Positions 2,234 to 45,104 of a stretch of 64,000 nucleotides of DNA are shown one piece after another. Position 1 is the first letter of the stretch. Every line of letters starts with the position of its first letter. The notes under the pieces were generated by a model. It was not told the DNA's origin, searched no databases, and was given only the letters and a program-made list of their open reading frames with translations. A program made the position numbers and the translations under genes. This stretch comes from an uncultured Gammaproteobacteria bacterium (GTDB lineage: Bacteria > Patescibacteriota > Microgenomatia > UBA1406 > GWC2-37-13), in contig CAZLGV010000001.1 of assembly GCA_964559705.1 (NCBI GenBank), positions 447,322-511,321 of the forward strand, in the 5' to 3' direction.

Positions 2234-2240
2234 AATTTTG

Positions 2241-3284
2241 ATGTTTCAACCTTCATTTACAATAACCAACAAAATCTTAAACAGTATTGCCAAAATAGAG
2301 GCCGCAGAGGAAACAATTAGGCACGCTCCACTTCTGCCTCTCTGGGAGAAGCAATTTCAAGAGGACGCCGTTGTCAGATCTGTTTATCACGGAACTCACA
2401 TAGAAGGAAACCTGCTTCATAAAGACGATGCAAAAAATTTATTGCTGGGAAAAGACGTGCTTGGCAGACCAAGGGATATTCAAGAGGTGATAAATTATAG
2501 GAAAGTAGTTGATTTTATAGATGATGAAGCAAAAAAACACATCGATAAAATAACTGAACAGCTTATCAAAAAACTCCATCGCATTATAACAGAAAAAATA
2601 ATGCCGTCAGAGCAAGCTGGAGAGTACAGAACAAAACAAGTGGTCATAAAAAATTCCCAAACTGGAGAAATCACTTTTAAACCACCCCCACCAATGGAAA
2701 TTCCTTTCTTAATGAGAGAATTTACCTATTGGATAAATCGACAAGGAAAAGAGGATCTACATCCCCTCTTAAAAGCAGGAATAGCTCATTATGAGCTGGT
2801 CCATATTCATCCTTTCTTTGATGGTAACGGACGAGTTGCCAGAGCCTTAGCAACCTTAATTTTATTTCTTGACGGCTATGATATTAGAAGGTTTTTTTCC
2901 TTTGAGGAATATTATGATAAGGATGCTGTCATCTATTATGAACATCTGCAAAAAGCCTCAGCCGGGAACTTAACCTCCTGGCTTGAGTATTTTACCTATG
3001 GAGCAGCTATAGAGTTTGATAAAGTTAGAGAAAAAGTATTAAGACTATCTAAGGATGCCAAACTAAAAGAAAGATTTGGAGGCAGACAAATTTTTTTAAC
3101 AGAGCGACAGGTAAAAATTATTGAATACATGCAAGAAGTAGGGCAATTACAGAATAAATTGTTCTCCACACTTTTCCCCGACGTTTCAGAAGATACAGTT
3201 TTGCGTGATATTCAAGAGCTTATCAAAAATAATCTTATTAAAAAAGTTGGCAGCACGAAAGCAGCCAGATATGTTTTAATTTAA
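2241..3284 (+). CDS. Fic family protein (AMPylase-type) with C-terminal winged-helix region
   Basis: Canonical Fic motif HPFFDGNGRVARA. N-terminal THIEGN resembles the inhibitory-helix ..xIEGN motif. The ORF track starts at TTG 2238, but ATG 2241 fits the promoter spacing. Confidence 0.85.
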   Translation: MFQPSFTITNKILNSIAKIEAAEETIRHAPLLPLWEKQFQEDAVVRSVYHGTHIEGNLLHKDDAKNLLLGKDVLGRPRDIQEVINYRKVVDFIDDEAKKHIDKITEQLIKKLHRIITEKIMPSEQAGEYRTKQVVIKNSQTGEITFKPPPPMEIPFLMREFTYWINRQGKEDLHPLLKAGIAHYELVHIHPFFDGNGRVARALATLILFLDGYDIRRFFSFEEYYDKDAVIYYEHLQKASAGNLTSWLEYFTYGAAIEFDKVREKVLRLSKDAKLKERFGGRQIFLTERQVKIIEYMQEVGQLQNKLFSTLFPDVSEDTVLRDIQELIKNNLIKKVGSTKAARYVLI

Positions 3285-3294
3285 AAACACAAAA

Positions 3295-3480
3295 ATGAGT
3301 AACTATTCCTGGGAAATTATCTATATAGGATTTCTTTTGCCAAGCCTTTTTTCAATAACCTTGATTATAGAGGGGATATATAAAATATATAAACATGAGG
3401 AAGGACTATTTACATTTTTAATGGGGGTTTTTTTTATAATAGGATTAGCCCTTTTTTATTTATTCTTGATTCCAAAATGA
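3295..3480 (+). CDS. Small two-TM membrane protein, unknown function
   Basis: 61 aa with two hydrophobic helices; ATGA overlap with the ligase start. Confidence 0.4.
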   Translation: MSNYSWEIIYIGFLLPSLFSITLIIEGIYKIYKHEEGLFTFLMGVFFIIGLALFYLFLIPK

Positions 3481-5264
3481 AATTTAAAGAACTATCACTG
3501 TATTTCAAAAAAGTAGAAGATACTGCTTCTAGACTTGAAATCACGCGTCTTCTTGCGGAACTTTTTAAAAAATTGACAGCGAAAGAGATAGATAAGACTA
3601 TGTATCTCCTTCAGGGACGGGTTGTTCCAATGTTTGATCCGGTGGAGTTTGGTTTTGCCGAGAAAATGGTTATCAGAAGTGCCGTTTCTGCCTTAAGCAT
3701 AGATAAAGATAAGTTTATAGGCGAATATGGAAAAATTGGAGATATTGGAAAAACTGTTGAGCGCTTTAAAAAAAGTTCAAAGCGGGATTTAGAAATAATT
3801 GAGGTTTTTAATGAGCTTTCGAGATTAGCAAACAGTGGGGGAAAGGGCTCACAAGAGATAAAAGTAACCATTCTTTCTAACCTAATTAGCCAATTGGATT
3901 CTTTATCTTGTCGTTATCTAGTCCGAATAGTCCTTGGAGTCATGCGACTTGGATTCTCCGATATGACTGTACTCGATTCGTTATCCTGGATGATTAAGAA
4001 TAATAAGAGCTTGCGGCCAGCAATTGAGGGAGCCTACCATGTGCGGCCAGACCTTGGTTTTTTGGCTAAATTTATAAAAGAGAATAATGGAAAGAAGCTT
4101 GATAGAATACAACCCAATCTTTTTACTCCAATTCTAATGATGAAAGCAGAAAGACTTTCATCTGCCCAAGACATATTAAAAAAAATTGGAGAATGCGCTG
4201 TCGAACCCAAATATGATGGATTTCGTCTCCAGGTCCACTATAAAAAAAATCCGCCAGCTGGCGGAGAAGCACGTTTATATTCGCGAAATCTTGAGGAAGT
4301 ATCAAGGATGTATCCGGATTTAATAGAGGCGGTAAAAAGGCAAGTTTCTGCAAAGGAAATAATTTTTGAAGGTGAGGCAATTGGTTTTGATCCCTACAGT
4401 GGAAACTTTCTTCCCTTCCAAGAAACAGTTCAGAGAAAAAGAAAGTACAGAATAGAAGAGATGGCCAAACAAATTCCCCTGAAACTTTTTACATTCGAAT
4501 TGCTTTATTTGAATGGAAAAAGTTATATTAACCAAGCTTTTTCGCAAAGGAGAAAACATCTAGCTAAAATCATTAAATCAAGTGGAGATGAGTTCAAAGA
4601 CATCATCTTAGTTTCCCAGGAAGAGATAATAAAAGATGAAAAAAAATTGGAAATTATGTTTGAGGAAGCTCTTTCAAAGGGATTGGAAGGAGTAGTGGCC
4701 AAGAAATTAACTGGAGTTTACCAGCCTGGAGCCAGAGGATGGAATTGGATAAAGTTCAAAAGAAGTTATTCTGCAAAAGTTGAGGATACGATAGATTGTT
4801 TGGTCATGGGTTACGATTTCGGGAGAGGAAAAAGAGCGGGGTTTGGCATAGGAGCATTTTTGGTCGGAGTTTACGACCAGAAAAAAGATAATTTTGTAAC
4901 TGTTGCAAAAATTGGTACTGGATTATCAGATCAAGAATGGAAACAATTAAAAGTTAAAAGTGAAAAGTTAAAAATTGAGAAAAAACCTGCGCTTTATAAT
5001 GTAGATAAACAAATGTATACAGATGTCTGGGTAAAGCCTGCCCTAGTGGTTGAGATTAAAGCTGATGAGATAACTCGCTCTCCGGTGCATACAGCAGGCA
5101 GAGTGATGAAAAAGTCAAAAAGTGGGTCTGCCCTTGATGTTGATACTCCAGGATTTGCTCTTAGATTTCCCCGACTTAAACATTTTAGAGATGATAGAAG
5201 ACCAGAAGATGCAACAACTCTTCGGGAAGTTGAAAAGATGTTTAAAGCTCAAGGAAAAAAATAG
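3477..5264 (+). CDS. lig: ATP-dependent DNA ligase, archaeal/eukaryotic Lig1-like three-domain type
   Basis: Adenylation motif I EPKYDGFR, EGEA, EGVVAK and WIKFK motifs. The 595-aa length includes an N-terminal DNA-binding domain. Confidence 0.9.
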   Translation: MKFKELSLYFKKVEDTASRLEITRLLAELFKKLTAKEIDKTMYLLQGRVVPMFDPVEFGFAEKMVIRSAVSALSIDKDKFIGEYGKIGDIGKTVERFKKSSKRDLEIIEVFNELSRLANSGGKGSQEIKVTILSNLISQLDSLSCRYLVRIVLGVMRLGFSDMTVLDSLSWMIKNNKSLRPAIEGAYHVRPDLGFLAKFIKENNGKKLDRIQPNLFTPILMMKAERLSSAQDILKKIGECAVEPKYDGFRLQVHYKKNPPAGGEARLYSRNLEEVSRMYPDLIEAVKRQVSAKEIIFEGEAIGFDPYSGNFLPFQETVQRKRKYRIEEMAKQIPLKLFTFELLYLNGKSYINQAFSQRRKHLAKIIKSSGDEFKDIILVSQEEIIKDEKKLEIMFEEALSKGLEGVVAKKLTGVYQPGARGWNWIKFKRSYSAKVEDTIDCLVMGYDFGRGKRAGFGIGAFLVGVYDQKKDNFVTVAKIGTGLSDQEWKQLKVKSEKLKIEKKPALYNVDKQMYTDVWVKPALVVEIKADEITRSPVHTAGRVMKKSKSGSALDVDTPGFALRFPRLKHFRDDRRPEDATTLREVEKMFKAQGKK

Positions 5265-13943: not shown

Positions 13944-14424
13944 AGTTAAGCTCATTCAGACTGAAGCGGAAGACCTTCTTAAAAAAATTATTGGCAAGCC
14001 AGAACTCGAAGTAAGCGAAGATAGTGGTGTTTATCATATTGTGATCAAGACAGAGGATGACGCTCCTGTTGTTATCGGTCGTCACGGAGAAACAATAAAA
14101 GCAATTCAAAAGATTCTCGAAGTCGTTCTTTATAAAAAACTTGGCGAGTCAGTTGAGATTTTGGTCAATGTTAATGATTATCGAGAAAAACAAAAGGAAA
14201 GACTGGAGCAGCTGGCAGATAAATTTGCCCAAAAAACTAAAGACTTAAGGAACTCTTCTTATATAAAAGGACTTTCATCTTATGAGCGAAAATTGGTGCA
14301 TGAGTATATAGTTGCGAATTATCCCGAGTTGACATCATATTCAACAGGCGAAGGCAAAGACAGACGCCTAGTTATTGACCTTAAGGAAAATGCACCCCAA
14401 ACTGCAGACGAAAACTCTGAGTAA
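13936..14424 (+). CDS. jag: Jag/KhpB-like KH + R3H RNA-binding protein
   Basis: KH-like VVIGRHGETIKAIQ and R3H-like LSSYERKLVHEYI. Canonical position after yidC. Confidence 0.75.
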   Translation: MDKVKLIQTEAEDLLKKIIGKPELEVSEDSGVYHIVIKTEDDAPVVIGRHGETIKAIQKILEVVLYKKLGESVEILVNVNDYREKQKERLEQLADKFAQKTKDLRNSSYIKGLSSYERKLVHEYIVANYPELTSYSTGEGKDRRLVIDLKENAPQTADENSE

Positions 14425-14610
14425 GTTCTTAATAATTTTTTTACCTGCGATCATTGTCTTTGATTTGATTTATTACTTTTATACCCGTTCCTCTTGCTTA
14501 AACTGCGGTGGTGTGGTAGAATTCTTCAAAACTTCATCATTATCTACTTTCATAATTTACAGTAGTCTAAAGAACTTCAAAAAATAAACCCAATCTTGAT
14601 AAAAGTTTGA

Positions 14611-14619
14611 TGCTATACT
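14611..14619 (+). promoter_or_regulatory. Extended -10 promoter TGcTATACT, 6 nt upstream of the giant ORF ATG
   Basis: gaTGcTATACTgaaaatATGgcc; no SD. Confidence 0.5.
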
Positions 14620-14625
14620 GAAAAT

Positions 14626-17600
14626 ATGGCCGACGGACTTAATGAAACGCCACGACAGGGCGATAGCGAATACAGAGCCGCTCGTGAGCCGGATGCGGTA
14701 AGAGAGGCAGTGGAGGAGGTTGACAGAAGAATTGAAGAAACAGAAGCTAATCCACAGCAAAGAGAACGATTGGAACAAGAACTAAGAGATGAATTGACCC
14801 GGCTTGAGGCTTTGGCAATTGAGGTCGGAGCTGCAGCAGAAAGAAATGTACAGGCTCCTGGGACTGTGCCGGAAAATAAAAAAGAAGAGGCGCAGAAGAT
14901 ACAAGTTTCTGTTGCCAAAGTACTACGGGCAGTTGAAAAAGGAGTGATCAAGCCGCCTGAAAAATCACAAGCAGTACTTTCTCGTTTAGCCAGACAAGAC
15001 CTCAGTGCCCAAGCTTCAACCAGTCTTTATAATTTTGTTACAAAATATCTAAGAGAAGATATTGCAGTTTCTCAACCTGGTCAATCCCAGACAAGTTTTG
15101 AGCAGGCACTTGACACTTTAAGAGCCAGAGACCCTGGTGCAGCAGCAGCAGTCAGGAGCGCTTTAATTGCTGAGGCGGCAACACTTGGACTTACTTCAGA
15201 GCAAGCTAGCCAAAAATTTGCGGGCGAAGTTAGAGAACAACCAGCAGAAACAAGGACCAGACCGCAAACCATGGTCGAAACCTTACGCCAGAGAGGAGTG
15301 GATATTCCGGAAGATGTCTTTGCCGAAGATTATTATGAGCGAGGAATGGTCAGGGAGTTTTTTAAAGAACCACAAGATTATAGAGTATGGCGTGCGCTTT
15401 TGAATATCGAAGACACAGTTGACCCGCAAACAGGGAGAGTTACTGATAGAGGCTTCAGAAGCTATGTGAATGAAACCAGAGAAGAAATAAGTGCAAAATA
15501 TCCAGGTGATGAACAAAAAATCCGTAAAGAAACCAGTGAGAAAATTACTCGTGATGTTGTTCGGCTATTTACCAGACTTTATGAAACCTTGGATAATCAA
15601 CATCCGGAAAAACTATATGAGGAGATTGAGAGAGAAGGTTATTCTGCCTCGATTGAGGTAGCCAAAGGAATTTTTGCCAGAAGACTAATCAGGCTAACCA
15701 ACAGTCTAGTATCTGATGAAAACTATGAGCAGTGGAAAAACTTTTTCTATAGAGAAGTTTCAATAGCAGACGTAAATGTCAGAGAGGTTCAGAAACAATT
15801 CCCAGATAAAAAAGAGCCGCTTACCCAATATGTTATTGAGGGAAAGGTAGTTCCTCTTCTTGATATAGAAATGTCTGACGCGCCAGATTTCATAAGAAGT
15901 ATACTGGTTCATGTCCGAACAACTGAAGGATTGATGAAATATACCCATAATGTCAATGCGCTTTTTCACCGCAGAGGATCCGCAGATCAGGGCTTTTGGG
16001 GCCAAATTGCTAAATATTCAGAGGAGTTTACTACAGGTTCTATTGACGAGCTGATGGTTCTGCCTGACGGCTGGTTGATCATGGAGGCACACAATTTATA
16101 TCGAAAATATCTTGAAGAAGAGCTTGTCAAGTCGAACTGGATGCATCAGCCACAGTTACTTACTGCCAGACGAGGAAATTTCGTTAATGAAATACAAAGA
16201 ATGGTTTTTGAGGATCTTAAGAGAATGTATGCTTCGGAATTTGGCGATACTCCTGATGAACAGCGTAAAGAAGAGTGGAGGGTGAGAAGAGCAGTTGGAG
16301 TTGCTCTTGGTTTATCCAGAGGAGTATTTTTGAGTGAGGTGGAACCGGCTGCCTGGGCAGATCCATTACTTGATCCTCTTACCGGCGACCCGACACACAT
16401 AAGCTATGGTACCAACGAAGCAGATCCTTATACAGCTTTTAATCCTCAACATCATTTTTTGCGCTGGCAACATGAGACTCATAAAAAAGGAGCCCTACTT
16501 TTTGCCCTGACCAATTTTGACCGAAAAAAACACCGTTTTTGGGATCACTACAAGGCTTTTGAGGAAATGAAGAAGTATCGTGAGACTTTTTATAGAGGAT
16601 CAGATTGGTTGAGAAGAAAAGATCCTGATGAACGCAGATTCTATGAGATTTTGCCTGGTTTAACCCGAGTCGGAAGCCTGCTTTTTAGAGGAGCTTGGAG
16701 ACTGAATGCGTATGACTATTGGATGGTCAAATATCCAGGAGTTGAAGGCACTGGTTCTCTGGCTGGTCAAAAAGACTTATTGAGTTGCTTTAAGGCTTTG
16801 GAAAATATTGGTTATGATGTCACATTCCATTTTAGCGAGGGTGACATTTTGGGCAATTGGAATTTTTTATTAGATAAAGATCCCGCAGTTGCAGCCGAAC
16901 GCCAAAAGCTTTTTGAATATGTTTACAACAAATATATACGCGATCCGCAGGGCAGAACTGGACAGTCCTTGGATGATTATTTACGCCAGATTCGACCAAG
17001 AGTAGAAGAGAAAGTAGATCGACTTATCAAGAGAGGAGATCTGGATAAAAGTGCGCGCCAAGACTGGATTATTGTTGAATCATATAAAACTTTAATGTAT
17101 AGGGGGTTAGCAGGACTGCTTCTGCAGCATGTGCCAACCAAACTTATCAAACTTGAGAGAAACAGACTAGCTGAAGATGGTGTGCGAGCCTGGGATAAAG
17201 TTAGGCAGCGCTTAGGCTGGGGAAATACGGCGGAAGGACTTACCAGAATGGACGTTGCCATGCGAAATCTTTCCATGGTTGAGAGTTTACTGCGAAGAAA
17301 GATGAGTAAGGCGATGAGGGAACACGTCGAGAGACAAGGCATGCGAAAATCACTCCACGACTTTGATTCCCAGACCAACAGGTTTGTGGTCACAGAGGAT
17401 TTAATCAGAGAAGAGTTGGCCAGAATGGGTATAGAGAGCGCTGATGTAATATCACTTTTTAGAACTATACACAATTTTGTTTTGGAAGGAAATCTTACAG
17501 AAACATTTATTGATAAATTTGCTGGCAAGTTGATAAAGAATGAGAAGATTAGAGTAGGCTATGACAGCCAAGGCCGCGGTGAAGACATAAACGAATTTAG

Positions 17601-18324
17601 AGATTTCTTTCCGATGCAGATTGGAAATGACGATATAGATAATACATTTCTTAACTGGAGTAACACCGGAGCTGGAGCTCTTAACCGAGCCGTCAGAGAG
17701 GTGGCCGAGGCAGAAATGCAGGTTTTCACACCCCTAAAAGAATTGTGGGACGCCTTGCCACAGGTGGCTATTGACCCCAATCGAGATATTTCGCCTTTGA
17801 TCAAGCCTCTTAAAGTTATGCATGAGCACCTACAGTCTATTCATGACAAATTATATGCTATAAAAGTCATGGACCAGGTGGCCTCTGGAATAATTGCTTA
17901 TTTTAGAAAAGATACCATTGCCAAAGTTTTTCCTTTCAGATTTGCCAGATTTGGTAAAGTTAACTCTATTGCCGCAGAGTTGGTTGGACCGTTTAAGGGA
18001 GTTTGGGAATGGGAGGCAAAAGATATCCACAATTTTCTGGTTGAACTGCAAAGGCAGGAACTTGTTCCGCACTATCCACGAGAGCTTTGGCAAAAAGCTC
18101 CGGATGTAAAAGCTCGACCCAGACTTTTTGGTCTGTTTAGACCTAGAGTTGAATATCATCCAGCTACCAAATACTATGCCCGAAATCTGGCAGATCGGGC
18201 TGGTGCACGCTGGTGGCACCTTGGCTGGGAATACATTAATAAATATTTGCCATTGATAATTGGCTATCTTCTCTGGCAAGCTTTATCTAAGGCATTTAAA
18301 GAAGAGTATGAAGGACAGAGATAA
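14626..18324 (+). CDS. 1232-aa orphan protein, apparently tail-anchored, no recognised domain
   Basis: Single uninterrupted ORF. Acidic/Ala-rich N-terminus and a single hydrophobic helix YLPLIIGYLLWQALSKAF about 10 aa from the C-terminus. I found no Walker A or HExxH and only one Cys. Confidence 0.7.
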   Translation: MADGLNETPRQGDSEYRAAREPDAVREAVEEVDRRIEETEANPQQRERLEQELRDELTRLEALAIEVGAAAERNVQAPGTVPENKKEEAQKIQVSVAKVLRAVEKGVIKPPEKSQAVLSRLARQDLSAQASTSLYNFVTKYLREDIAVSQPGQSQTSFEQALDTLRARDPGAAAAVRSALIAEAATLGLTSEQASQKFAGEVREQPAETRTRPQTMVETLRQRGVDIPEDVFAEDYYERGMVREFFKEPQDYRVWRALLNIEDTVDPQTGRVTDRGFRSYVNETREEISAKYPGDEQKIRKETSEKITRDVVRLFTRLYETLDNQHPEKLYEEIEREGYSASIEVAKGIFARRLIRLTNSLVSDENYEQWKNFFYREVSIADVNVREVQKQFPDKKEPLTQYVIEGKVVPLLDIEMSDAPDFIRSILVHVRTTEGLMKYTHNVNALFHRRGSADQGFWGQIAKYSEEFTTGSIDELMVLPDGWLIMEAHNLYRKYLEEELVKSNWMHQPQLLTARRGNFVNEIQRMVFEDLKRMYASEFGDTPDEQRKEEWRVRRAVGVALGLSRGVFLSEVEPAAWADPLLDPLTGDPTHISYGTNEADPYTAFNPQHHFLRWQHETHKKGALLFALTNFDRKKHRFWDHYKAFEEMKKYRETFYRGSDWLRRKDPDERRFYEILPGLTRVGSLLFRGAWRLNAYDYWMVKYPGVEGTGSLAGQKDLLSCFKALENIGYDVTFHFSEGDILGNWNFLLDKDPAVAAERQKLFEYVYNKYIRDPQGRTGQSLDDYLRQIRPRVEEKVDRLIKRGDLDKSARQDWIIVESYKTLMYRGLAGLLLQHVPTKLIKLERNRLAEDGVRAWDKVRQRLGWGNTAEGLTRMDVAMRNLSMVESLLRRKMSKAMREHVERQGMRKSLHDFDSQTNRFVVTEDLIREELARMGIESADVISLFRTIHNFVLEGNLTETFIDKFAGKLIKNEKIRVGYDSQGRGEDINEFRDFFPMQIGNDDIDNTFLNWSNTGAGALNRAVREVAEAEMQVFTPLKELWDALPQVAIDPNRDISPLIKPLKVMHEHLQSIHDKLYAIKVMDQVASGIIAYFRKDTIAKVFPFRFARFGKVNSIAAELVGPFKGVWEWEAKDIHNFLVELQRQELVPHYPRELWQKAPDVKARPRLFGLFRPRVEYHPATKYYARNLADRAGARWWHLGWEYINKYLPLIIGYLLWQALSKAFKEEYEGQR

Positions 18325-18340
18325 AATAGATTATTAATTT

Positions 18341-18349
18341 TGGTATGAT
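18341..18349 (+). promoter_or_regulatory. Extended -10 promoter TGgTATGAT, 6 nt upstream of ATG 18356
   Basis: ttTGgTATGATcaagatATG. Confidence 0.45.
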
Positions 18350-18355
18350 CAAGAT

Positions 18356-19108
18356 ATGAAGCGTTGGCTTTTCTTTTTTGTCAGTGCCTTAATTTTTTTA
18401 TATGCTTTTTTGCCTAAAGTACATGCTGCAGATACTCCCTCGGTTAACGCAATAGGCGGAGAAGGAGATGTAGCCGGCTTAAACTGCGGAGTAGCCAAAG
18501 AAGGAGGAGGATTAGATAGATGTTGCAGTACCCAACCCAGAAGCTTACCCGATATTCCGCTTTCAGGACTGTTGAGCCATCTTCCATTTGTCGGTTCAAT
18601 AATTGATCAGTATGTTAAAGCAGATGAAAATATGGAAGAACTTCAAAGAGAAAGTCTGACTGCCTGTATTTCTGGAGAGCCAACAAGCGATCCAACTGAC
18701 CCAAGTTGCCGCTGTGAACTTTCGGCTGATGCAGGAGCAATCCCTCCAATTGCAGACCTCTGCCAAAAATATATAACTGATCCAGATGAGCTTAGAAAAT
18801 GCAATGATTGTACTGGGCCCAGCAAGGGAGGATTTTACAGTGGTTTTGGCTGCGTACCTCTGACCCTACAAGGCTTTGTCTCGAACTTTTTACTTTCAAT
18901 TGGAGTAAACGTGGCCTTTGTGGTAGCTCTTCTTTGTATTATTTATTCTGCTTTTATGCTCCAGACATCGCAGGGGAATCCGGAAAGGCTAAAAAAAGCC
19001 AGAGAATATCTAACTTCTTGTATTGTCGGTCTGGTATTAATACTCTTCTCGGTATTTCTGTTAAGACTGATTGGAGTGAGTATTCTGGGAATACCAGGGC
19101 TTATATAG
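18356..19108 (+). CDS. Secreted Cys-rich protein with a C-terminal TrbC/VirB2-like pilin module
   Basis: Signal peptide ...LPKVHA/AD, 10 Cys in the ectodomain, and a C-terminal two-helix module with QTSQGNPERLKKAREYLTSCIVG. Confidence 0.65.
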   Translation: MKRWLFFFVSALIFLYAFLPKVHAADTPSVNAIGGEGDVAGLNCGVAKEGGGLDRCCSTQPRSLPDIPLSGLLSHLPFVGSIIDQYVKADENMEELQRESLTACISGEPTSDPTDPSCRCELSADAGAIPPIADLCQKYITDPDELRKCNDCTGPSKGGFYSGFGCVPLTLQGFVSNFLLSIGVNVAFVVALLCIIYSAFMLQTSQGNPERLKKAREYLTSCIVGLVLILFSVFLLRLIGVSILGIPGLI

Positions 19109-20816
19109 TATATTGGCCTGAGGCTGGACTACTTCCGCTACCTCCTTTAGGCGGCTTAGGTTTTCCTCTATTTGCTAACCAGTCTCTGACCATATTTATA
19201 CCATGCTGGGCATAGAAAAGGCCACTAAACTGACTCATACTACCCATGACTCCTTTTGTAGCTCCAGTGATTCCGGTAAAGAAGACCGAGGGGCTAACTC
19301 CCAGATCCAGAGGCTTAGGAAGGATGGCTTTTTTAACTGTTTGAACCAGATTTGGCGCAGCAAATAAGAACCACATAGCAATCACAATTGAAAAATTTCC
19401 CGGATCGATACCGTACAAGAAGGGTAGACGGATAAATTCTCCAGAGGAAGACCCTCCGAGATTAAAAATAATTAAAGCGAAAATGAAAACAGTAATAACC
19501 AGAGGAAAAGTTAAAAGCTCGTTGATTAGACTTTTAAACCAGCTGGGCAGGGCCGCTTTGCCTGGGAAGAGCTCGCGCAAAAGATAAACAGGTGCGGTGA
19601 TAATCAGAAGTATTATTTTAATATAGGCAGAAAGCAGAAGAATCAGAATTCGAAAAAAAATAAAAACAATAGAGATGAAAAAAATAACTCCCAGCAGGAA
19701 AGGGATAATAATGAAAATGCCAATAGCCGCAGCCACAGGAATTAAAAGGCGATATATACCTCCCTGAACTATCCCGTTAACAAAACCATGCAAGGCAGCA
19801 CTAACTCCTCCTAAACTGAAACCAAATATTGATGGTTTGGCTTCAGCTCCCGCTTCTACACGCACAACCTTTTCCACCCATCCAAATTTTTGAGCAAGCT
19901 TAAGATAGATAAAAAAATATCCAATCAGCGCGCCTATGATATTTTTAATCACCGCAATAGGGCCAAGTAGATTTAGCATGGCATTAGGAAAAGTCCAAAA
20001 TAAATTGATAAAACTGAATTTTGCCAGACTAGAAAAAATATCCGATGGTCTAGCCTGTATATAGCGAGCCTGAAGAGAGTTTATATCCAGCCCGCCGGCT
20101 TGGCCCAGAATGAAAATAATAAGAACAATAAATACGTACATAAGGTCGATCAGAAAACCAGCGATAGCAAAAGAAAAAGTGATAAAAATAAGCGAAACAA
20201 CTATCCGGGGAATTGTATTTTCAATCGAAATAACTGTTTGGGGATTTATTTTGACCCTAAACATGATTAGAAATCCAAAGGTGATCAGAACTATAACCAG
20301 AAAAACATAGGCAACATTTCTAATACCTGTCCAAACGTCAGCTAAAGGTTTGATTGAGGCAAAACCTATTCCTTCGACGGCATAAGTTTTGGGAATAAAT
20401 CCTGCCCGTTGAAGACTCTGTTGAGCCCAATATACGCCTGATGCAGGTGGATTAAAGTAAGGAAACATGAGTAAATTTACTCCTTTGCCGATAAGACTGT
20501 TGTCAAAATTTATATTTCCATCCTGCGGATTATCGGTGCAGGCTTCACCCAAAAGTCCGCACATGGTTGCCCGATAAAGAAGGATAACTTGTTTTCCTTC
20601 TTTGGTTTTGTTCAGTTCTGGGTCTTTGATGACTTTGTAAATTTCATCTCTGTTCCTTTTGATCGGATCGACAGTTGCCTTTGGCTTATCGCGATTGATG
20701 AAATAGGCAAAAAGCCCAAAGACGATAAAATAAACTGCGAGAACAAGAAAAATCTTATTGGCAATTTTAAAACCCTTTTTAATATAGGTTTTCAAAAAAG
20801 CAAACATCAATTTCAT
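19101..20816 (-). CDS. Polytopic membrane protein (about 10 TM), possibly VirB6/TrbL-like
   Basis: N-terminal TM, an approximately 130-aa loop with Cys (CGLLGEAC), then many TM helices. The VirB6-like call rests only on topology and context. The start may be M4 (20807). Confidence 0.55.
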   Translation of the reverse strand: MKLMFAFLKTYIKKGFKIANKIFLVLAVYFIVFGLFAYFINRDKPKATVDPIKRNRDEIYKVIKDPELNKTKEGKQVILLYRATMCGLLGEACTDNPQDGNINFDNSLIGKGVNLLMFPYFNPPASGVYWAQQSLQRAGFIPKTYAVEGIGFASIKPLADVWTGIRNVAYVFLVIVLITFGFLIMFRVKINPQTVISIENTIPRIVVSLIFITFSFAIAGFLIDLMYVFIVLIIFILGQAGGLDINSLQARYIQARPSDIFSSLAKFSFINLFWTFPNAMLNLLGPIAVIKNIIGALIGYFFIYLKLAQKFGWVEKVVRVEAGAEAKPSIFGFSLGGVSAALHGFVNGIVQGGIYRLLIPVAAAIGIFIIIPFLLGVIFFISIVFIFFRILILLLSAYIKIILLIITAPVYLLRELFPGKAALPSWFKSLINELLTFPLVITVFIFALIIFNLGGSSSGEFIRLPFLYGIDPGNFSIVIAMWFLFAAPNLVQTVKKAILPKPLDLGVSPSVFFTGITGATKGVMGSMSQFSGLFYAQHGINMVRDWLANRGKPKPPKGGSGSSPASGQYTI

Positions 20817-20844
20817 TCTAGAGGATTTATCAAGCCATTGTCAA
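20815..20844 (-). promoter_or_regulatory. Promoter TTGACA-N18-TAGAAT, 7 nt upstream of ATG 20807
   Basis: The minus strand reads TTGACAatggcttgataaatcctcTAGAATgaaattgATG. Confidence 0.4.
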
Positions 20845-20856
20845 CAAACGACAGTT

Positions 20857-22095
20857 TTAGCAATTAGGTGCATGGTAAGGACCTTTGGGTAGATTAATAT
20901 CGATATGGAAATGATTATCATGCCCCTCAATGCATTTCATCTGTTCCAAGGATAATTTATTAGCCCGAGCATAACTGATCACAGCGCTGTTAACCGCGCT
21001 ATCACAGTACCAAATATTTTTAATCAGATTAGTATCAACGAACATTTTCCCAAGTTGAATAGTTGCCTCCCGGCTATAGCTACCTTTGGTATAGTCGGCT
21101 GCTCTGGGATTACAACAAGCATCAACATCAACAGCAATCCCTCCATTGTGAGTTTTATGCGGAGAGCCAGCATTTATATCACCTATCCAAAGTTCAGAAT
21201 CTTTCTGGGCCTCGGCATATCTTAAAGCAGTAGTGTAGAGGACTCCGACTAATTCTTTTTTTCCATAACCTCGGGCCGAGCAGTGATAAAGAGTATATTC
21301 TCCTTTTGGCGCAACAGGCATTTTATAATAACCCAGTGAATTTGGGCTGCCTAAATTTGGAGGATAGAGAAGTCCCTCATAGGAGGGTAAAGGTCCTGTA
21401 TCAGGTGCTTGGGTCGGACCAGGTGTAAGTCCTCCAATATCAAAAGAAAATAAAGCGTCAAAAATATTTGTAATTCTCTCAACTTCTTTATCCTGTGGAG
21501 TTTTACCTTTTTCTCCTTCCTTCAGGAATTCGCTTTTTTCTTGTTCTATATAATCACTTCCAGGATGTTCCAGGTCGTCGACAATATCATTTTTCGAGTC
21601 TTCTATAGCCTGGTCGATTACAGGATTTTGACTAACCACTATAATTTCTGATCCTCCTTCATAAAGATCCAAAAGATTATTTTCTCGAAGATAGTCCTTT
21701 AATTTATCATAACCTTGAGGAGTTTTTAAAGAAATAAAAAGCTGGTTTAACTCCGTAGAATACTTAATATCGAAATCTTCAGAGGAATAAGGTAGTTTTT
21801 CTTTGAATTTATTTATATTTTCCAATTGTTGTGCAGTTAAAGCATTGTCGGTTTCTTCGGCCAGCTCTTTCAGCTTTTTTCTTTTTTCTTCAGTAGTCAA
21901 GCTTCGAGTCTGGTTTAAGAATTGCTTATCTGTTCCGCTCGTTGTGCGTTGTTCAAAGGAGCCAGTTGGACTAGGAATCTGTTTTTGATCTTCTTTGATT
22001 CTTCCTAGCATCTGGGTCAGAAATATTGTGACAGCAATTAGAAAAACCAAAACAGCAGCCGCAATCAAGATAAATTTATTAGCTAGTTTATTCAT
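20857..22095 (-). CDS. Membrane-anchored cell-wall peptidase, LAS/M15-like zinc hydrolase domain
   Basis: N-terminal TM. C-terminal THNGGIAVDVD fits the xHxxGxAxD motif, and GHDNHFHIDI fits HxH. The N-terminal approximately 215 aa are paralogous to the upstream ORF. Confidence 0.6.
   Translation of the reverse strand: MNKLANKFILIAAAVLVFLIAVTIFLTQMLGRIKEDQKQIPSPTGSFEQRTTSGTDKQFLNQTRSLTTEEKRKKLKELAEETDNALTAQQLENINKFKEKLPYSSEDFDIKYSTELNQLFISLKTPQGYDKLKDYLRENNLLDLYEGGSEIIVVSQNPVIDQAIEDSKNDIVDDLEHPGSDYIEQEKSEFLKEGEKGKTPQDKEVERITNIFDALFSFDIGGLTPGPTQAPDTGPLPSYEGLLYPPNLGSPNSLGYYKMPVAPKGEYTLYHCSARGYGKKELVGVLYTTALRYAEAQKDSELWIGDINAGSPHKTHNGGIAVDVDACCNPRAADYTKGSYSREATIQLGKMFVDTNLIKNIWYCDSAVNSAVISYARANKLSLEQMKCIEGHDNHFHIDINLPKGPYHAPNC
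21433..21492. repeat. 60-nt segment 57/60 identical to 22635-22694
   Basis: tccaatatcaaaagaaaataaagcgtcaaaaatatttgt... encodes the shared peptide DKEVERITNIFDALFSFDIG (minus strand). Confidence 0.9.
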
Positions 22096-23255
22096 TTATT
22101 TTTAGAATAATAATCCCAGACCCTCTGAAAATAACTTTGGGTTGATGAGGGAATACTGTTTGGGTATCGGCTGCAACCAGCATTGTAACAAACGACGGCC
22201 CTTCGTACATGCTCATAGTTCCAATCAAGACCAAAGGCTAAACTATCCAGTTTTAATTTTTTGGCTGCGGCATATACACTGTCTAGAATATTTTCAATAT
22301 AAGGCTTACGTGTATATCCTCCAATAGTATTGACTGCATTTGCGTAACCAGTCCAAGTTGTGGGTAAAAATTGCATTGGTCCACTGGCTCCAATTCCATT
22401 TCGAAAACAGGGATGCGAAGGTGGAATCCCCTTGCCTGCCTGCGAGTACTCAGCTATCTTTGGCCCAGTCAGATCAAATATAAATCCACATTCAATACTC
22501 ATCACAGCATGGAGTATTGATGGAGGAGTCTTAGCTTTTAGTCCAGCTTCGTTAAAAATACTCTCCAAGGAGGAGAGATCTGCACTGGGTATATTATCAA
22601 TTGTTCCTCCTGGTGGTGTTCCTTCTGATATTTCTCCAATATCAAAAGAAAATAAAGCGTCAAAAATATTTGTGATCCGCTCAACTTCTTTATCGGGTTT
22701 TGACTCTTTCTCTTTCTGTTCTTGCTGATATTGTTGTTCTATTTTTTCTCGCTCTTCTTCTTTTTGCTCAAATATTTTTTCTTCATCTTGATTAATTGCT
22801 TGATCGACAGGTTTGTCGGTAGTTACAAACAGGTCCTCAAATTCTTGACTTATCTCGAAAAGTCCGTTGTCTTTTAGGAATTGGTCAATTTTTTCATTGG
22901 CTTGTGGTGTTTTTTTGCGCATATAGAATTTACCTAGGTAATCAGAATAGCCCATATCAAAATCATCAGAGGTATAGGGCAATTTTTCCTTGAATTTATT
23001 AATTATTTCTTCCTGTTGGGGTGAAAAATACTTCAATGCTTTTGCTTGCTCTTCTAATTTTTCTTCTTCTTCCGGCCTTAGAGTAGGAGACCGTCTGCTA
23101 TCTGTGCCTACAGGCTCATAGCTACCAGTTGGAAGAGGAATTTTTTTTAACGCCTCCTCTTTTTTTCTAAAAAAGCTTTGGAGGAGTAGAGTCAGAAAAA
23201 TAAGAATAACTAAGGCTCCAACAGCCAGTGCAATAAGTTTGTTTTGTGTTGACAT
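22092..23255 (-). CDS. Membrane-anchored lytic transglycosylase (SLT, family 1)
   Basis: N-terminal TM. C-terminal motifs MSIECGF (catalytic Glu), GASGPMQF and CYNAG. ATGA overlap with the downstream paralog. Confidence 0.7.
   Translation of the reverse strand: MSTQNKLIALAVGALVILIFLTLLLQSFFRKKEEALKKIPLPTGSYEPVGTDSRRSPTLRPEEEEKLEEQAKALKYFSPQQEEIINKFKEKLPYTSDDFDMGYSDYLGKFYMRKKTPQANEKIDQFLKDNGLFEISQEFEDLFVTTDKPVDQAINQDEEKIFEQKEEEREKIEQQYQQEQKEKESKPDKEVERITNIFDALFSFDIGEISEGTPPGGTIDNIPSADLSSLESIFNEAGLKAKTPPSILHAVMSIECGFIFDLTGPKIAEYSQAGKGIPPSHPCFRNGIGASGPMQFLPTTWTGYANAVNTIGGYTRKPYIENILDSVYAAAKKLKLDSLAFGLDWNYEHVRRAVVCYNAGCSRYPNSIPSSTQSYFQRVWDYYSKNK
22635..22694. repeat. 60-nt segment 57/60 identical to 21433-21492
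   Basis: Direct comparison of the two stretches shows 3 mismatches. Confidence 0.9.
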
Positions 23256-23283
23256 TCAATCAATTTTTAGTCAAAATGACAAT

Positions 23284-26109
23284 ATGTCCTCTTTTTTTGA
23301 TTTTATAAGAAAAGACAATCCCAAGTCAACTCCGCCTTCGGCCGGACCAACCCCGCCCCAGCCAACAACACCCCAACAAACAGTCCAAAGTAGCCAGCAG
23401 GTAACCAAAACTGTCCAAGCCTATTCAGGAATAGGACAGCCACCTCAACCGCCGCAGCAGCAACTCCATGTCAGCCCAACCCCAGTTCCAACTCCTGGTT
23501 TAACCGCTACTTCAAGAGGCGGAGATATTGATTTAATGACACATTTGACCCAAAGATCAAATAGAGTATTTTTGGGAGCTCAAAATAAAGCTAGAGGATT
23601 GCAAAATCGCTTTGTTGATAGTGAACATTTACTACATGGACTTCTTTTAGACTCGGAAATTTATAAAGTTTTGACAGAGCTTAAAATCCAGCCCCAACTT
23701 GTAGAAGAAGAGCTAAACAAAGTTTATAAAAAAGAATCATACATGGGTGCTCCGCAAGTTTCTCCGCGGATAAAAAGAATTATTGATAACTCTCTGGTTA
23801 TAGCCAGAAAACTGGGCTTTGAATTTATTTCTCCAGAACATATTCTGGTTGCCCTCTACGAAGAGGGTGAGGGAGTAGGAGCAAAGATTTTGCAGAAGTT
23901 CGCTTTAAAAAAAGAAGATCTTAATAAAAAAGTTGTCGGTAAAAAAGAAGGAGTGGATGGGGAAGCGGCCAAACACAAAAGTGCGCTTGATGAATACACA
24001 ATCAATCTCACGGAGAAAGCTAAACAGGGACTTCTTGATCCTGTGGTTGAGCGCTCTGATGTAATAGAGCGGGTAATTCATATTTTATCTCGAAGAACAA
24101 AAAACAATCCTGCTTTGGTTGGTGAGGCAGGGGTAGGCAAGACCGCGATTGTCGAGGGACTAGCTCAAAAAATTGCCTCCAAACAAGTTCCAGAACCCCT
24201 TCTGGATAAAAGAATTCTCCAGCTTGATTTGATGAGTATCATAGCAGGAGCTTCCCATAGAGGAGATTTTGAGGAAAGGATGAAAAATTTGATCGAAGAG
24301 GTAAAAAAGAATCAAGGTAAGGTAATTTTATTTATAGACGAGATTCACAATATAGTTGGCGCAGGCTCATCTGGCGAGGGAGCTCTTGATGCTTCAAATT
24401 TCTTAAAACCTGCTCTGGCCCGAGGAGAAATGCAACTTATTGGAGCGACTACTCTGACAGAATACAGAAAATACATTGAAAAAGATCCAGCCTTAGAAAG
24501 ACGTTTTCAACCGGTTTTGGTTCCCGAACCTACAGAAGAACAAGCAATTAAAATGTTAAAAGCCATAAAAGATAAATACGAAGCCTTTCATCGAGTAAAA
24601 ATTCCAGATTTAGCCATAGATGCAGCTGTAAAACTATCCAAAAGATATGTTGGAGATAGGTTCTTGCCCGATAAAGCAGTTGATTTGATGGATGAAGCTG
24701 CCTCAGCTGTGAGATTGCCTTTAATTTCTTTGCCTGAAGAAATAAAATCTCTTGAAACAAGATTGTCAGAATTTAACCAGGAATTGAAAGAAGCGGAAAA
24801 AAGGGGAGATAAAGTTAGACAAAACATCCTTCAGCCCAAAATAGATGAAATTTCAAAAAATCTTAAGGAAAAAAAAGAACAGTACGAATTAAAAAAAGCC
24901 CAAACTACAAGCGAAGTCAATCCAGAGTTGATTCGAGATATAGTTTCTCGCTGGACCGGAATACCAGTTTCCAAAATTACGGAATCAGAAGTTGAAAAAC
25001 TTTCCAAACTTGAAGAAGCAATTCATCAACGGATGATTAATCAAGAAGAGGCAGTTTCGGTTATTGCCCAAGCCGTAAGAAGAGGCAGAGCAGGCTTAAA
25101 ATCAGCCCAACGCCCAACCGGAAGTTTCATATTTCTTGGGCCAACAGGAGTTGGTAAAACAGAACTGGCTAAAACTCTGGCAGAAATACTTTTTGGTCAG
25201 GAGGAAGCAATGACCAGACTTGATATGACTGAATATATGGAGAAGCATGAGGTGGCAAAATTGATCGGTGCCCCGCCTGGATATGTTGGCTATGAAGAGG
25301 GAGGAAAATTAACCGAGGCAGTTCGCAGAAAACCTTATTCTGTCGTTCTTTTTGATGAAGTTGAAAAGGCACACCCTGATATTTTCAATATTCTTCTCCA
25401 GATCTTGGATGATGGAAGATTGACCGATAACAAAGGCAGAACAATATCTTTTAAAAATACAGTAGTTATCTGTACTTCCAACCTAGGAACGAAATTCATC
25501 CAAGATGAACTACTAAAACAAAATAAGAAACAAGAAACAATAACCAAGAAACAAACTGGAACTGATAAAAAAGCTTTTGCTGCGATAAGAGAGAAAGTTC
25601 TAGCAGAGCTGAGAAAATTTTTCAGACCCGAACTTATAAACAGATTTGATGAAATTATTGTCTTTGAACCTCTTTCATTTGAAGATATGGTTAAAATTGT
25701 CAGATTGCAATTAAAGAGTGTGGGAAAGCTTCTTGAAGACCAAGACATAGGATTTTATTTCGCAGATCGCGCAATAGAAGAAATCGCTCAAATAGGATTT
25801 GATCCTATTTTTGGAGCAAGACCATTGAGGCGGGCTATCCAAAAATTTATAGAAAATCCTATCTCGACCTTAATCATAAAGGGAGATGTGCATGGAGCAG
25901 ACACGGTAAAGGTTGATTTCAAAGATAACGAATTCAAGTTTAATATAGAGCACAGCCAATCTAAACAAAATGGTAAAGCCCGACAACGAGTGAAGCTCAC
26001 CTGTGATAATTGTAAAAACGTTTTCGAAACAGAGAAAATCGGTAACTCGACAACAATATGTTCAAAATGCGCATCCAAAAAAGTTAGAGATAATACCTTA
26101 TATGCCTAA
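23284..26109 (+). CDS. ClpB/ClpC-family double-AAA+ ATPase with a Pro/Gln-rich N-extension and a C-terminal zinc ribbon
   Basis: Clp_N repeats; NBD1 [13 protein letters not shown] / ILFIDEIH; NBD2 [15 protein letters not shown] / [12 protein letters not shown] saw no [LIV]G[FL] ClpP loop. C-terminal CDNC...CSKC. Start moved to ATG 23284 because the tracked 23239 start overlaps the divergent gene. Confidence 0.85.
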
Positions 26110-26413
26110 AAATTACACTCCTTTAGATACTGAAAAACTCAGAAAGAAATATTCTGTAAAGCAAACAAACAAACTAAACACTGTTTTGATAGTGATTGCC
26201 GCAATTACAGCAATTGTTCTAGCAGTTGTTCTTGTAGTTTTGATGCAAAAGAGAACAAATGTCGAAAAAGAGCCCACTGCTCCTAGCTCTGCCCCAACTC
26301 CCATGGTTTCACCCACTGTAGAACCAACAGCTTCTCCTTCCGCGATCCCAACTTTGGAGGCAACTATCACTCCGGAAGCAAGCCAAAGTCCAAGCGTAAG
26401 TCCTACTCCTTGA
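26102..26413 (+). CDS. Membrane-anchored Pro/Thr/Ser-rich protein
   Basis: MPKNYTPL..., one TM (VLIVIAAITAIVLAVVLVVLM), then PTAPSSAPTPMVSPTVEPTASPS... The tracked 26003 start lies inside the clp gene. Confidence 0.45.
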   Translation: MPKNYTPLDTEKLRKKYSVKQTNKLNTVLIVIAAITAIVLAVVLVVLMQKRTNVEKEPTAPSSAPTPMVSPTVEPTASPSAIPTLEATITPEASQSPSVSPTP

Positions 26414-26414
26414 T

Positions 26415-26726
26415 ATGAGATATCTAGCACAAACAATTAATATAAATGGCAGGATCATTACAGGACCATTGAAAGGAATAAATAATCTGAGTGATGTTAT
26501 AAACATAATTGTAAAAAACTTAATATTAATTGCTGGAGTTATTTTATTTCTCATTTTGATTATAGGAGGTTACGGATTCATCACTTCCGCAGGCAATCCT
26601 GAAAAATTGAAATCCGCCAGAGCAAAAATATCAACAGGAATAATAGGTTTTGTTCTGCTGATCGTGTCGTATCTAATTGTTAAACTTATTTCAGTTATCT
26701 TTGGTCTGGGAGAGGGTATTTTTTAG
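26415..26726 (+). CDS. Small two-helix membrane protein, TrbC/VirB2-like (T4SS-pilin-like) paralog
   Basis: ITSAGNPEKLKSARAKISTGIIGF between two hydrophobic helices. It starts 1 nt after the preceding stop. Confidence 0.6.
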   Translation: MRYLAQTININGRIITGPLKGINNLSDVINIIVKNLILIAGVILFLILIIGGYGFITSAGNPEKLKSARAKISTGIIGFVLLIVSYLIVKLISVIFGLGEGIF

Positions 26727-44843: not shown

Positions 44844-45104
44844 TCAGAGCGAAAAAATAAAAATCAGTAATAAAATAATCGTAAAGCCGATGAAAATATA
44901 TTCTATCACACTCTTCAGACGAAGAGTTTTTTCTCTAATATGATAGTATATACCCCAAAGAATATAAAAAGAAACAAAGAGTAGAATAACTGTAAAACTT
45001 TTGAGCCTTTCTCCTTGAAACATCTGAAGAAAAAGTAGGAAAAAAATACTGCTAGTTAAAAGAATTAGATAGTCCAAAATATTTTTTTTCAAATAGTTTT
45101 TCAT
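44844..45104 (-). CDS. Small three-TM membrane protein
   Basis: Hydrophobic 86-aa ORF with a 4-nt overlap to the upstream gene. Confidence 0.35.
   Translation of the reverse strand: MKNYLKKNILDYLILLTSSIFFLLFLQMFQGERLKSFTVILLFVSFYILWGIYYHIREKTLRLKSVIEYIFIGFTIILLLIFIFSL

Follow-up and report, generated by a model that had tools for sequence, protein, structure and literature searches.

A conserved cluster of pilin, polytopic membrane protein and wall hydrolase genes in Roizmanbacteria, possibly part of a dispersed type IV secretion-like apparatus

A gene cluster between yidC-jag and recF

The window analysed here is a stretch of 64,000 nucleotides (contig CAZLGV010000001.1 of assembly GCA_964559705.1, positions 447,322 to 511,321), a low-GC (about 0.31-0.42) segment of the chromosome of an ultrasmall, uncultivated bacterium of the Candidate Phyla Radiation (CPR). 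The closest relatives of its proteins come from metagenome-assembled genomes (MAGs) of Candidatus Roizmanbacteria/Microgenomates, at 36-61% identity. Between yidC-jag and recF the window carries a set of genes for two pilins, a polytopic membrane protein, two wall hydrolases, a giant orphan protein, an unfoldase and a small membrane protein, and in Roizmanbacteria (class Microgenomatia) this cluster is a chromosomal gene module found across the lineage. A preliminary description of the same DNA had proposed eight linked genes with the logic of a type IV secretion system (T4SS) or conjugative pilus; all eight open reading frames (ORFs) are present, at or near the positions first assigned to them. 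The genes are densely packed, with ends that overlap or nearly touch:

14626-18324, plus strand: giant orphan protein, 1232 aa; ORF, no family match
18356-19108, plus strand: Cys-rich pilin, 250 aa; PF18895, 27.4 bits (cut-off 26.6)
19101-20816, minus strand: polytopic membrane protein, 571 aa (568 aa from ATG 20807); hydrophobic segments, unannotated family
20857-22095, minus strand: transmembrane-anchored N-module protein with a C-terminal LAS-type metallopeptidase head, 412 aa; Peptidase_M74, 24.3 bits
22092-23255, minus strand: transmembrane-anchored N-module protein with a C-terminal SLT-like lytic transglycosylase head, 387 aa; SLT, 21.1 bits
23284-26109, plus strand: ClpC-like double AAA+ unfoldase, 941 aa; Pfam domains, deposited protein start
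26102-26413, plus strand: small bitopic protein, one transmembrane helix followed by a Pro/Thr/Ser-rich extracytoplasmic tail; start inferred
26415-26726, plus strand: short VirB2-like pilin, 103 aa; PF18895, 32.3 bits

Gene order in relatives

A scan of one genome per species returned 231 relatives of the polytopic protein. The loci mapped comprise 80 of these 231 and five from exact-protein look-ups, giving 85; each spans up to 10 kb on either side of the polytopic gene, and the ORFs were mapped by phmmer and hidden Markov model (HMM) searches. Nearly all locus records that bear a lineage name are Roizmanbacteria or Microgenomates. The polytopic gene is present in 85 of 85 loci, with the Cys-rich pilin gene adjacent and convergent in 82; the ClpC-like gene occurs in 51, the short pilin gene in 45 and RecF in 35. 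The usual order is DUF2298, LeuRS, YidC, Jag, giant and Cys-rich pilin; on the opposite strand, polytopic protein, N-module protein and N-module hydrolase; then the ClpC-like protein, one or more small transmembrane proteins, a pilin, a variable stretch and RecF. A neighbourhood that recurs in 85 loci places the linkage of the cluster genes far beyond chance. The synteny on which the preliminary description had staked its proposal is real: giant, Cys-rich pilin and polytopic genes adjoin one another in all loci whose contigs extend far enough, and an inversion of the block does not part them.

The rearrangements define which genes belong together. In one clade (L036, L055, L066 and L067) the block is inverted; in the two members that are fully mapped, L055 and L066, the N-module genes stand upstream of the giant on the same strand and the polytopic gene stands alone after Jag, with the five core families still contiguous. 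The neighbours on the RecF side differ between loci (some have EF-G and an S24 peptidase, another has DnaG and sigma-70) and the cluster is unchanged. In L058 and L083, one of them a close relative, the ClpC-like gene is missing from the cluster and the unit of small transmembrane protein and pilin abuts the N-module operon, the short pilin gene still lying beside the cluster. Since contiguity persists through inversion, through changes on the RecF side and through loss of the ClpC-like gene, the core consists of the giant, the Cys-rich pilin, the polytopic protein, the N-module proteins and the short pilin. Two convergent operons make up its main part, one running from the giant to the Cys-rich pilin, the other from an N-module hydrolase through an N-module protein to the polytopic protein.

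Two features of the sampled records are set down here. Three MAGs each contain two contigs with the set of polytopic protein and Cys-rich pilin, with or without the giant (L011/L016, L007/L021 and L018/L032); the contigs are short, and the pairs could be paralogous second copies or two strains binned together. Many records named 'uncultured Gammaproteobacteria bacterium' (binchicken and SRP co-assemblies; e.g. L007, L012, L015, L018 and L019) have the Roizmanbacteria type of gene order, YidC, Jag and LeuRS included, and the organism names on them look wrong.

Pilins

Both cluster pilins pass the gathering cut-off that Pfam sets for PF18895 (T4SS_pilin), 26.6 bits, the Cys-rich pilin with 27.4 bits and the short pilin at 26415-26726 with 32.3, so that neither of the pilin-like ORFs first proposed fails in profile searches. 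Relatives carry the same precomputed PF18895 match. Against NF045849, with its cut-off of 40 bits, the short pilin scores 34.5 and the Cys-rich pilin 24.2 bits; the latter also scores 15.4 bits against TrbC. A profile of the Cys-rich pilin gave chance-level matches only against PDB sequences.

The Cys-rich pilin consists of an N-terminal hydrophobic segment, which is probably a signal peptide (the cleavage site being judged by eye), an ectodomain of ~150 aa and a C-terminal VirB2-like two-helix module. Ten Cys residues lie in the ectodomain and two in the transmembrane helices; all 12 are invariant or nearly so among 25 relatives, and 45 of 74 homologues have 12 Cys. The ectodomain loops between the conserved Cys vary among relatives. 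A secreted protein with ten ectodomain Cys joined to a TrbC/VirB2-like two-helix module, as it was first described, thus stands, with its Cys framework kept and the PF18895 cut-off passed. Both pilins show the PF18895 layout of two hydrophobic helices with a short basic loop between them. Transmembrane-like segments occupy residues 178-196 and 223-241 of the Cys-rich pilin and 31-49 and 76-94 of the short one, where a basic loop, GNPEKLK, links the two hydrophobic helices; the loop motif GNPE[KR]LKK is conserved.

The same family is represented outside the cluster:

875-1222 and 1219-1548, minus strand: tandem pair of further VirB2-like pilin genes; PF18895, 30.5 bits (875-1222), and family HMM

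Both members of this pair are matched by an HMM built from the cluster pilins, 1219-1548 by that HMM only. They sit between the genes for mevalonate-diphosphate decarboxylase and undecaprenyl-diphosphate synthase and, with the two pilins of the cluster, bring the number of pilin-like genes in the window to four.

The polytopic membrane protein

The NCBI gene call starts the polytopic protein at ATG 20807, giving 568 aa. Eight strong hydrophobic segments are recognisable, with more helices in the AlphaFold2 (AF2) model, and the layout is that of a basic N-terminus, a first transmembrane helix, an ectodomain of ~125 aa with two invariant Cys and a multi-helix membrane bundle. This is a topology of the VirB6/TrbL type, that is, at least five transmembrane helices together with an extracytoplasmic domain. 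The family is large: a word-indexed search found at least 628 homologues, with no Pfam domain among the 120 matches listed, and an exhaustive HMMER search found 3,815 clusters at 50% identity with E<=1e-3, 2,290 of them with E<=1e-30.

Sequence comparison leads to no known family. The protein and 38 family members had no Pfam, TrbL/VirB6 (PF04610) or transporter match even at E<=10, the family profile gave chance-level matches only against PDB sequences, and hhalign comparison of the family alignment with PrgH and Tn916 Orf15 gave probabilities below 1%, a weak test with single-sequence templates. The AF2 model built from a 38-sequence alignment (mean predicted local distance difference test score, pLDDT, 76; predicted template-modelling score 0.63) was compared with the PDB by Foldseek. 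The top match is the Legionella DotA protochannel subunit (9ngy, E 0.098, probability 0.57), and eight of the next 18 are R388 TrwI/VirB6 chains (E 0.56-7.1, target-normalised template-modelling score (TM-score) 0.31-0.40); no match reaches E<=1e-3. The DotA and TrwI/VirB6 fold matches are suggestive, a lead that is not statistically significant. Of the VirB6/TrbL-like protein of 571 aa that had been proposed, the membrane topology stands; a profile match to TrbL/VirB6 is missing and the Foldseek matches are non-significant. The converse worry, that the protein might belong to an unrelated transporter family, finds no backing: no transporter family was matched. The polytopic protein is a candidate functional analogue of VirB6.

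Wall hydrolases on a common N-terminal module

The C-terminal heads of the two minus-strand hydrolases are borderline by profile: 22092-23255 scores 21.1 bits against SLT (cut-off 21.3), and 20857-22095 scores 24.3 bits against Peptidase_M74 (cut-off 25). LAS metallopeptidases bear the zinc motifs H-x(3-6)-D and H-x-H, and the second protein has H316-x6-D and H395-x-H, which back a probable LAS assignment; relatives support both the SLT and the LAS head. The N-terminal ~220 aa are common to both window proteins, at 39% identity. Judged by sequence the two are paralogues on a single N-terminal module, here called the N-module, which is composed of a transmembrane helix, a Pro/Thr linker and a conserved domain of ~70 aa.

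An HMM of the N-module finds 118 ORFs across the loci, all in this slot, of which 69 are stand-alone (~145 aa) and 49 carry C-terminal heads. A Pfam scan of 83 slot proteins found Peptidase_C39_2 in 26 and CHAP in three; VanY, Amidase_2, M74, SLT and alpha/beta hydrolases turned up once each. The SLT head is found again in eight loci, the LAS head in one other locus only, L023. The usual operon runs from a long form to a short form (the N-module alone) and on to the polytopic gene, and the window is unusual in having two long forms. As in a VirB1-like hydrolase, the slot beside the polytopic gene holds wall-hydrolase domains on transmembrane-anchored proteins, the SLT domain of the window being borderline. 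Matches of the N-module profile to PDB sequences were at chance level only. An SLT transglycosylase and a LAS/M15-like peptidase had been proposed as two separate genes; the zinc motifs back the LAS assignment and the relatives back both, with profile scores just under their cut-offs, and the correction is that they share one module.

The giant orphan protein

Searches of Pfam, NCBIfam, PHROG, PADLOC and the sequences of the PDB gave no match for the giant protein, and the profile of its family gave chance-level matches only against PDB sequences. Its profile HMM has a match in 72 of the 85 loci; four more have an ORF of 1294-1391 aa in the same slot that ends in a C-terminal transmembrane helix and a charged tail, and in the loci that have neither the contig ends before the slot. 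The window copy is 15-29% identical to its relatives, except for one match at 44%, and its neighbours in the same genomes are at about 40-46%. The family is nevertheless conserved over its full length, with a mean column identity of about 26% in a 35-sequence alignment. A variable N-terminal part is followed by a better-conserved core (about residues 420-1140), with well-conserved His, Asp, Glu, Arg and Trp positions, and by a conserved C-terminal hydrophobic helix. No conserved P-loop and no signal peptide were found, and the protein is predicted to be cytoplasmic and all-alpha. An AF2 model from a two-sequence alignment has a pLDDT of 38 and is unusable.

The preliminary description had called the giant tail-anchored. 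In the window copy the C-terminal helix, LPLIIGYLLWQAL, is short and falls under the threshold of 1.6 for Kyte-Doolittle transmembrane prediction, but this segment ranks with the better-conserved stretches of the 35-sequence alignment, and the four most divergent relatives show there an unmistakable hydrophobic helix of about 20 residues with a charged tail behind it. In the window copy the tail anchor is only partly visible.

The ClpC-like unfoldase and the small membrane protein

The AAA+ protein has the Pfam domains Clp_N, AAA, AAA_lid_9, AAA_2 and ClpB_D2-small, and its best match among PDB sequences is ClpC, aligned end to end with 791 bits; ClpB aligns in two pieces. The deposited product starts at ATG 23284 and has 941 aa, in place of the earlier start at TTG 23239, which overlaps the divergent gene. 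There are two Walker A motifs, a Pro/Gln/Thr-rich N-terminal extension (window 23284-23540) and a C-terminal CxxC...CxxC (CxxC at 922 and 941). Relatives range from about 950 to 1620 aa, owing to low-complexity N- and C-terminal tails, and 31 of 42 have a zinc ribbon within the last 80 residues. A ClpP-docking [IVL]G[FL] loop was looked for by eye and none was seen. Since the gene is missing in L058 and L083, it is a frequent neighbour of the cluster and not a core member. A ClpV-like coupling of the ATPase to the machine was considered and down-weighted, the protein being ClpC-like and dispensable for the cluster. What persists of the divergent ClpB/C-like ATPase with a zinc ribbon is its ClpC likeness and its CxxC...CxxC; its start and its place in the core had to be given up.

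The Pro/Thr/Ser-rich gene downstream most likely starts at 26102 and not at 26003. Its transmembrane segment corresponds to residues 61-79 of the long form of the ORF, and homologues occur in 22 loci; the anchored protein first described thus keeps its helix and its tail and loses its start. In three loci an extra gene for ~210-220 aa, with no Pfam match, lies between the small transmembrane protein and the short pilin (L001, 3943-4575; L003, 4796-5431; L005, 4597-5259); the window has no such gene.

Motor ATPases and the published Patescibacteria system

The preliminary description had remarked on the absence of a VirB4-, VirD4- or VirB11-type ATPase, a relaxase and a secretin, and none of these was found in the window when nearly all ORFs of at least 100 aa outside larger genes were scanned. 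A phmmer search with sixteen proteins of the pCF10 and Tn916 transfer regions, PcfC and Tn916 Orf21 among them, gave no match in the window or the related loci.

A T4SS with VirB2-like PF18895 pilins is already published for Patescibacteria (PMC12102498, PMC12857230). The Patescibacteria-specific system of Quinonero-Coronel et al. is related to the MPF-FATA class of monoderms and was detected via VirB4, with TrsD, VirB3, VirB6 and VirB2-like pilins (PF18895 among the profiles) close by; its loci are in many cases close to dnaA, dnaN and rpmH and mostly lack a relaxase (PMC12102498). The same survey found VirB6 homologues to be 'scarce' in Microgenomatia, 'suggesting extreme sequence divergence', with VirB3 rarely adjoining VirB4 and pilin arrays abundant (PMC12102498). 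In Southlakia epibionticum the T4SS and an array of six pilins are essential, the function of the system being 'completely unknown' (PMC12857230, PMC11665869). In the literature searched, PMC12102498 included, no description was found of the present cluster, the Cys-rich pilin fusion, the N-module family or the giant protein; what is new relative to it is a conserved VirB4-less module with three unannotated families.

The portion of Table S3 of the survey that covers four Roizmanbacteria genomes lists VirB4 and TrsD, several coupling proteins and at most one VirB2 in two of them, GWA2_35_19 and GWA2_37_7, with positions unstated, and lists VirB6, VirB3 or VirB8 in none of the four (PMC12102498). 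GWA2_35_19, which has VirB4 and TrsD in that portion, carries this cluster too (L049). Beyond RecF, L049 continues with an S24 peptidase and EF-G and has no VirB4-like ORF on the stretch covered, so the VirB4 locus of GWA2_35_19 appears to lie elsewhere in the genome. The VirB2 recorded at coding sequence 140 of GWA2_35_19 was considered as a possible cluster pilin and rejected on the same grounds.

A proposed apparatus and its alternatives

The reading we favour, held with about even confidence, is that the cluster encodes the membrane and extracellular half of a dispersed Patescibacteria T4SS-like apparatus, with the ATPases encoded elsewhere. Shown are the gene content, the profile membership of the pilins, the family sizes and a neighbourhood kept through rearrangement; the VirB6 role, the assembly of a pilus, the use of VirB4 and any part played by the giant are inferred. 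The two PF18895 proteins would be pilins of the VirB2 type that sit in the membrane as helical hairpins. The polytopic protein would take the VirB6 role, as the platform or channel where pilins are extracted and assembled into a pilus. The Cys-rich pilin would display a disulphide-knotted head with variable loops, on the surface of the filament or at its tip, in the manner of an adhesin. The transmembrane-anchored N-module proteins would bring interchangeable peptidoglycan-cutting heads (SLT, LAS, C39-like/CHAP and amidase), opening the wall as VirB1 does. The energy source would be VirB4/TrsD and coupling proteins whose genes lie at other places in the genome. The giant, a cytoplasmic protein held to the membrane by its C-terminal helix, may be a scaffold or assembly factor on the cytoplasmic face, which is a guess.

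The published Patescibacteria T4SS (S. epibionticum, Wang et al. 2023 via PMC12857230; PMC12102498) is like the cluster in its monoderm CPR host, its PF18895 pilins, divergent paralogues included, its polytopic membrane protein and wall hydrolases, its chromosomal location and the lack of a relaxase. It differs in its defining genes, virB4 and the nearby trsD, virB3 and virB6, none of which lies in the window or, in the 85 loci, within 10 kb of the polytopic gene, and in often standing near dnaA, dnaN and rpmH, where this cluster stands between yidC-jag and recF. In the Gram-positive conjugative systems (PrgH/PrgK/PrgL of pCF10; Orf15/Orf14/Orf13 of Tn916) there are likewise adjoining genes for a polytopic protein, a transmembrane-anchored multi-domain hydrolase (SLT, CHAP or NlpC) and a small bitopic protein; however, these show no sequence or profile similarity to the cluster, have VirB4 and VirD4 in the same operon and have no VirB2-type pilins (PMC12857230). 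The TrwI/VirB6-VirB5-VirB2 platform of R388 and the Legionella DotA-IcmX protochannel, the best weak structural matches, have a polytopic inner-membrane protein at the base of the T4SS stalk; they are diderm systems with an outer-membrane complex, the matches are non-significant (E 0.098-7.1, TM-score <= 0.40), and no VirB5 is recognisable in the cluster. The Mbov_0395-family pilin-like protein of a Mycoplasma integrative and conjugative element (NF045849) is a similar small two-helix membrane protein, matched by both cluster pilins (34.5 and 24.2 bits); the scores are under the cut-off of 40, and the cluster has no integrase, TraE or TraG.

Several observations weigh against a dispersed T4SS-like apparatus. 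The VirB6 assignment is without sequence support, its structural matches staying at E >= 0.098 and TM-score <= 0.40. No VirB4, VirD4, VirB3 or TrsD lies in the window or, across the 85 loci, within 10 kb of the polytopic gene. Two assemblies that the covered portion of Table S3 scores as VirB4-negative, GWC1_37_12 (L030) and GWC2_34_23 (L020), contain the cluster, and both are fragmented (PMC12102498). PF18895 genes are scattered among housekeeping genes in this very genome (875-1548). The flank of LeuRS, YidC and Jag equals the cluster in collinearity; some of the synteny could thus be plain inheritance, and collinearity alone is no proof of function. Of the T4SS or conjugative-pilus logic that had been proposed, the synteny, the PF18895 pilins and the hydrolases speak for it; the VirB6/TrbL resemblance, which has no profile match, and the membership of the AAA+ protein, which is outside the core, are the points to correct. 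The dispersed arrangement, which the preliminary description had offered as an option, gains from the occurrence of VirB4/TrsD without VirB6 in two of the four Roizmanbacteria genomes in that portion of the table, and loses from the two VirB4-negative assemblies that bear the cluster.

The absence of any T4SS ATPase near the cluster in 85 loci also suits a self-contained, VirB4-independent envelope machine, in which pilins, polytopic platform, N-module proteins and giant build a new type of appendage or host-contact organelle, perhaps powered or remodelled by the ClpC-like unfoldase. The two VirB4-negative assemblies point the same way, as do the polytopic and giant families without known relatives and the ClpC-like gene with its lineage-specific zinc ribbon, which adjoins the cluster in most of the loci that reach that far. 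We regard such a machine as unlikely, though the most serious of the rivals. The VirB4-negative assemblies are incomplete, the ClpC-like gene is missing in L058 and L083 and looks like an ordinary ClpC orthologue, no other motor has been identified, and of the 1,948 VirB4-containing assemblies with PF18895 pilins, 1,135 have them near virB4 (PMC12102498). In its most specific form, the claim would be that a previously undescribed VirB4-independent Roizmanbacteria machine has a new polytopic platform and a membrane-tethered giant that assemble VirB2-like pilins, one of them headed by a disulphide-knotted adhesin, into a host-contact organelle whose wall-cutting modules are interchangeable; this we consider a shade less likely still.

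It is rather improbable that there is no machine at all, and that separate envelope genes (small membrane proteins, autolysins of growth or division, a chaperone) are merely kept together by the conserved order from yidC to recF. Gene order in the housekeeping flanks is conserved to the same degree, the ClpC-like gene is probably a housekeeping gene itself, genes of the PF18895 type are also found at 875-1548, amid unrelated housekeeping genes, and promoter-like sites are not above chance. Yet the neighbours on the RecF side vary while the cluster stays intact, the five core families remain contiguous after inversion into a new operon arrangement, gene ends overlap or nearly touch, and the N-module, with its 118 ORFs, is exclusive to this slot. 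More doubtful again is a cassette of host-attack effectors, in which the N-module proteins are polymorphic surface-anchored or exported hydrolases directed against the wall of a host, and the giant and the variable pilin head reflect an arms race. A conserved N-terminal module with swappable enzymatic heads fits this idea, as do a giant that diverges far faster (15-29% identity) than its neighbours (about 40-46%), pilin head loops that vary on an invariant Cys frame and the epibiotic lifestyle reported for Patescibacteria (PMC11665869). However, the hydrolases keep their N-terminal transmembrane anchor, and the gene after them is no immunity-like gene but the N-module alone. The effector idea also overlaps with the dispersed T4SS-like apparatus and is compatible with it rather than exclusive.

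Patescibacteria make up a large share of uncultivated bacterial diversity, and a T4SS-like system is essential in the sole species genetically tested (PMC11665869, PMC12857230). The survey missed VirB6, VirB3 and VirB8 in most Microgenomatia (PMC12102498), and the cluster offers concrete candidates for missing parts: the polytopic family with its 3,815 clusters, the pilin architecture with a Cys-knot head, the modular hydrolase family and a conserved orphan of 1,200 residues. The cluster further suggests that a survey anchored on virB4 overlooks half of the system in Microgenomatia. The cluster also provides defined targets for structure prediction, for proteomics and for cryo-electron tomography on enrichments.

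Genomic setting

The cluster is flanked by housekeeping genes: on the left a DUF2298 membrane protein, a class-I tRNA synthetase, YidC and Jag/KhpB, on the right RecF, phosphoenolpyruvate carboxykinase, an aminotransferase, RadC, a Y-family polymerase, an S24 peptidase, MscL, EF-G, S7, S12 and RpoC/RpoB, with FtsEX, an M23 peptidase, RF2, DnaG, sigma-70 and glycosyltransferases farther to the right. A plasmid- or phage-borne cluster was considered and rejected: tblastn with the polytopic protein against 72,556 plasmids gave nothing meaningful and no relatives occur in viral contigs, which argues that the cluster travels with neither. Searches of PHROGs and PADLOC ruled out known phage or defence families.

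In many bacteria the genes from yidC to recF mark the origin of replication. The window has no dnaA or dnaN, and its cumulative GC skew peaks near 30-32 kb, the junction of plus-strand genes (about 10.9-30.5 kb) with minus-strand genes (about 30.5-51.8 kb). As the peak lies where the gene strands converge, the yidC-recF region is here no obvious point of divergence of gene orientation. At 14000-20000, which spans the giant, Cys-rich pilin and polytopic genes, the GC content is 0.41-0.42, compared with 0.33-0.37 on either side; the cause may be amino-acid composition, Arg, Glu and Ala being abundant in the giant, rather than foreign origin.

The best sigma-70-like match of the region, TTGACA-18-TAGAAT at 20815-20844 on the minus strand (11/12), ends 8 nt before the polytopic ATG 20807, and a second, TTGACA-17-CAAAAT at 23249-23277 on the plus strand, ends 7 nt before the ClpC-like ATG 23284. 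With either spacing the mRNA would be leaderless. Promoter-like sites are in total no more numerous than in shuffled controls. Other genes of the window, at 3477-5264, 2238-3284, 45101-45970 and 46276-47490, are listed together as an ATP-dependent DNA ligase of archaeal/eukaryotic type, a Fic/DOC protein with a helix-turn-helix, a CAP (cysteine-rich secretory protein) domain protein and a lamin-tail-domain protein.

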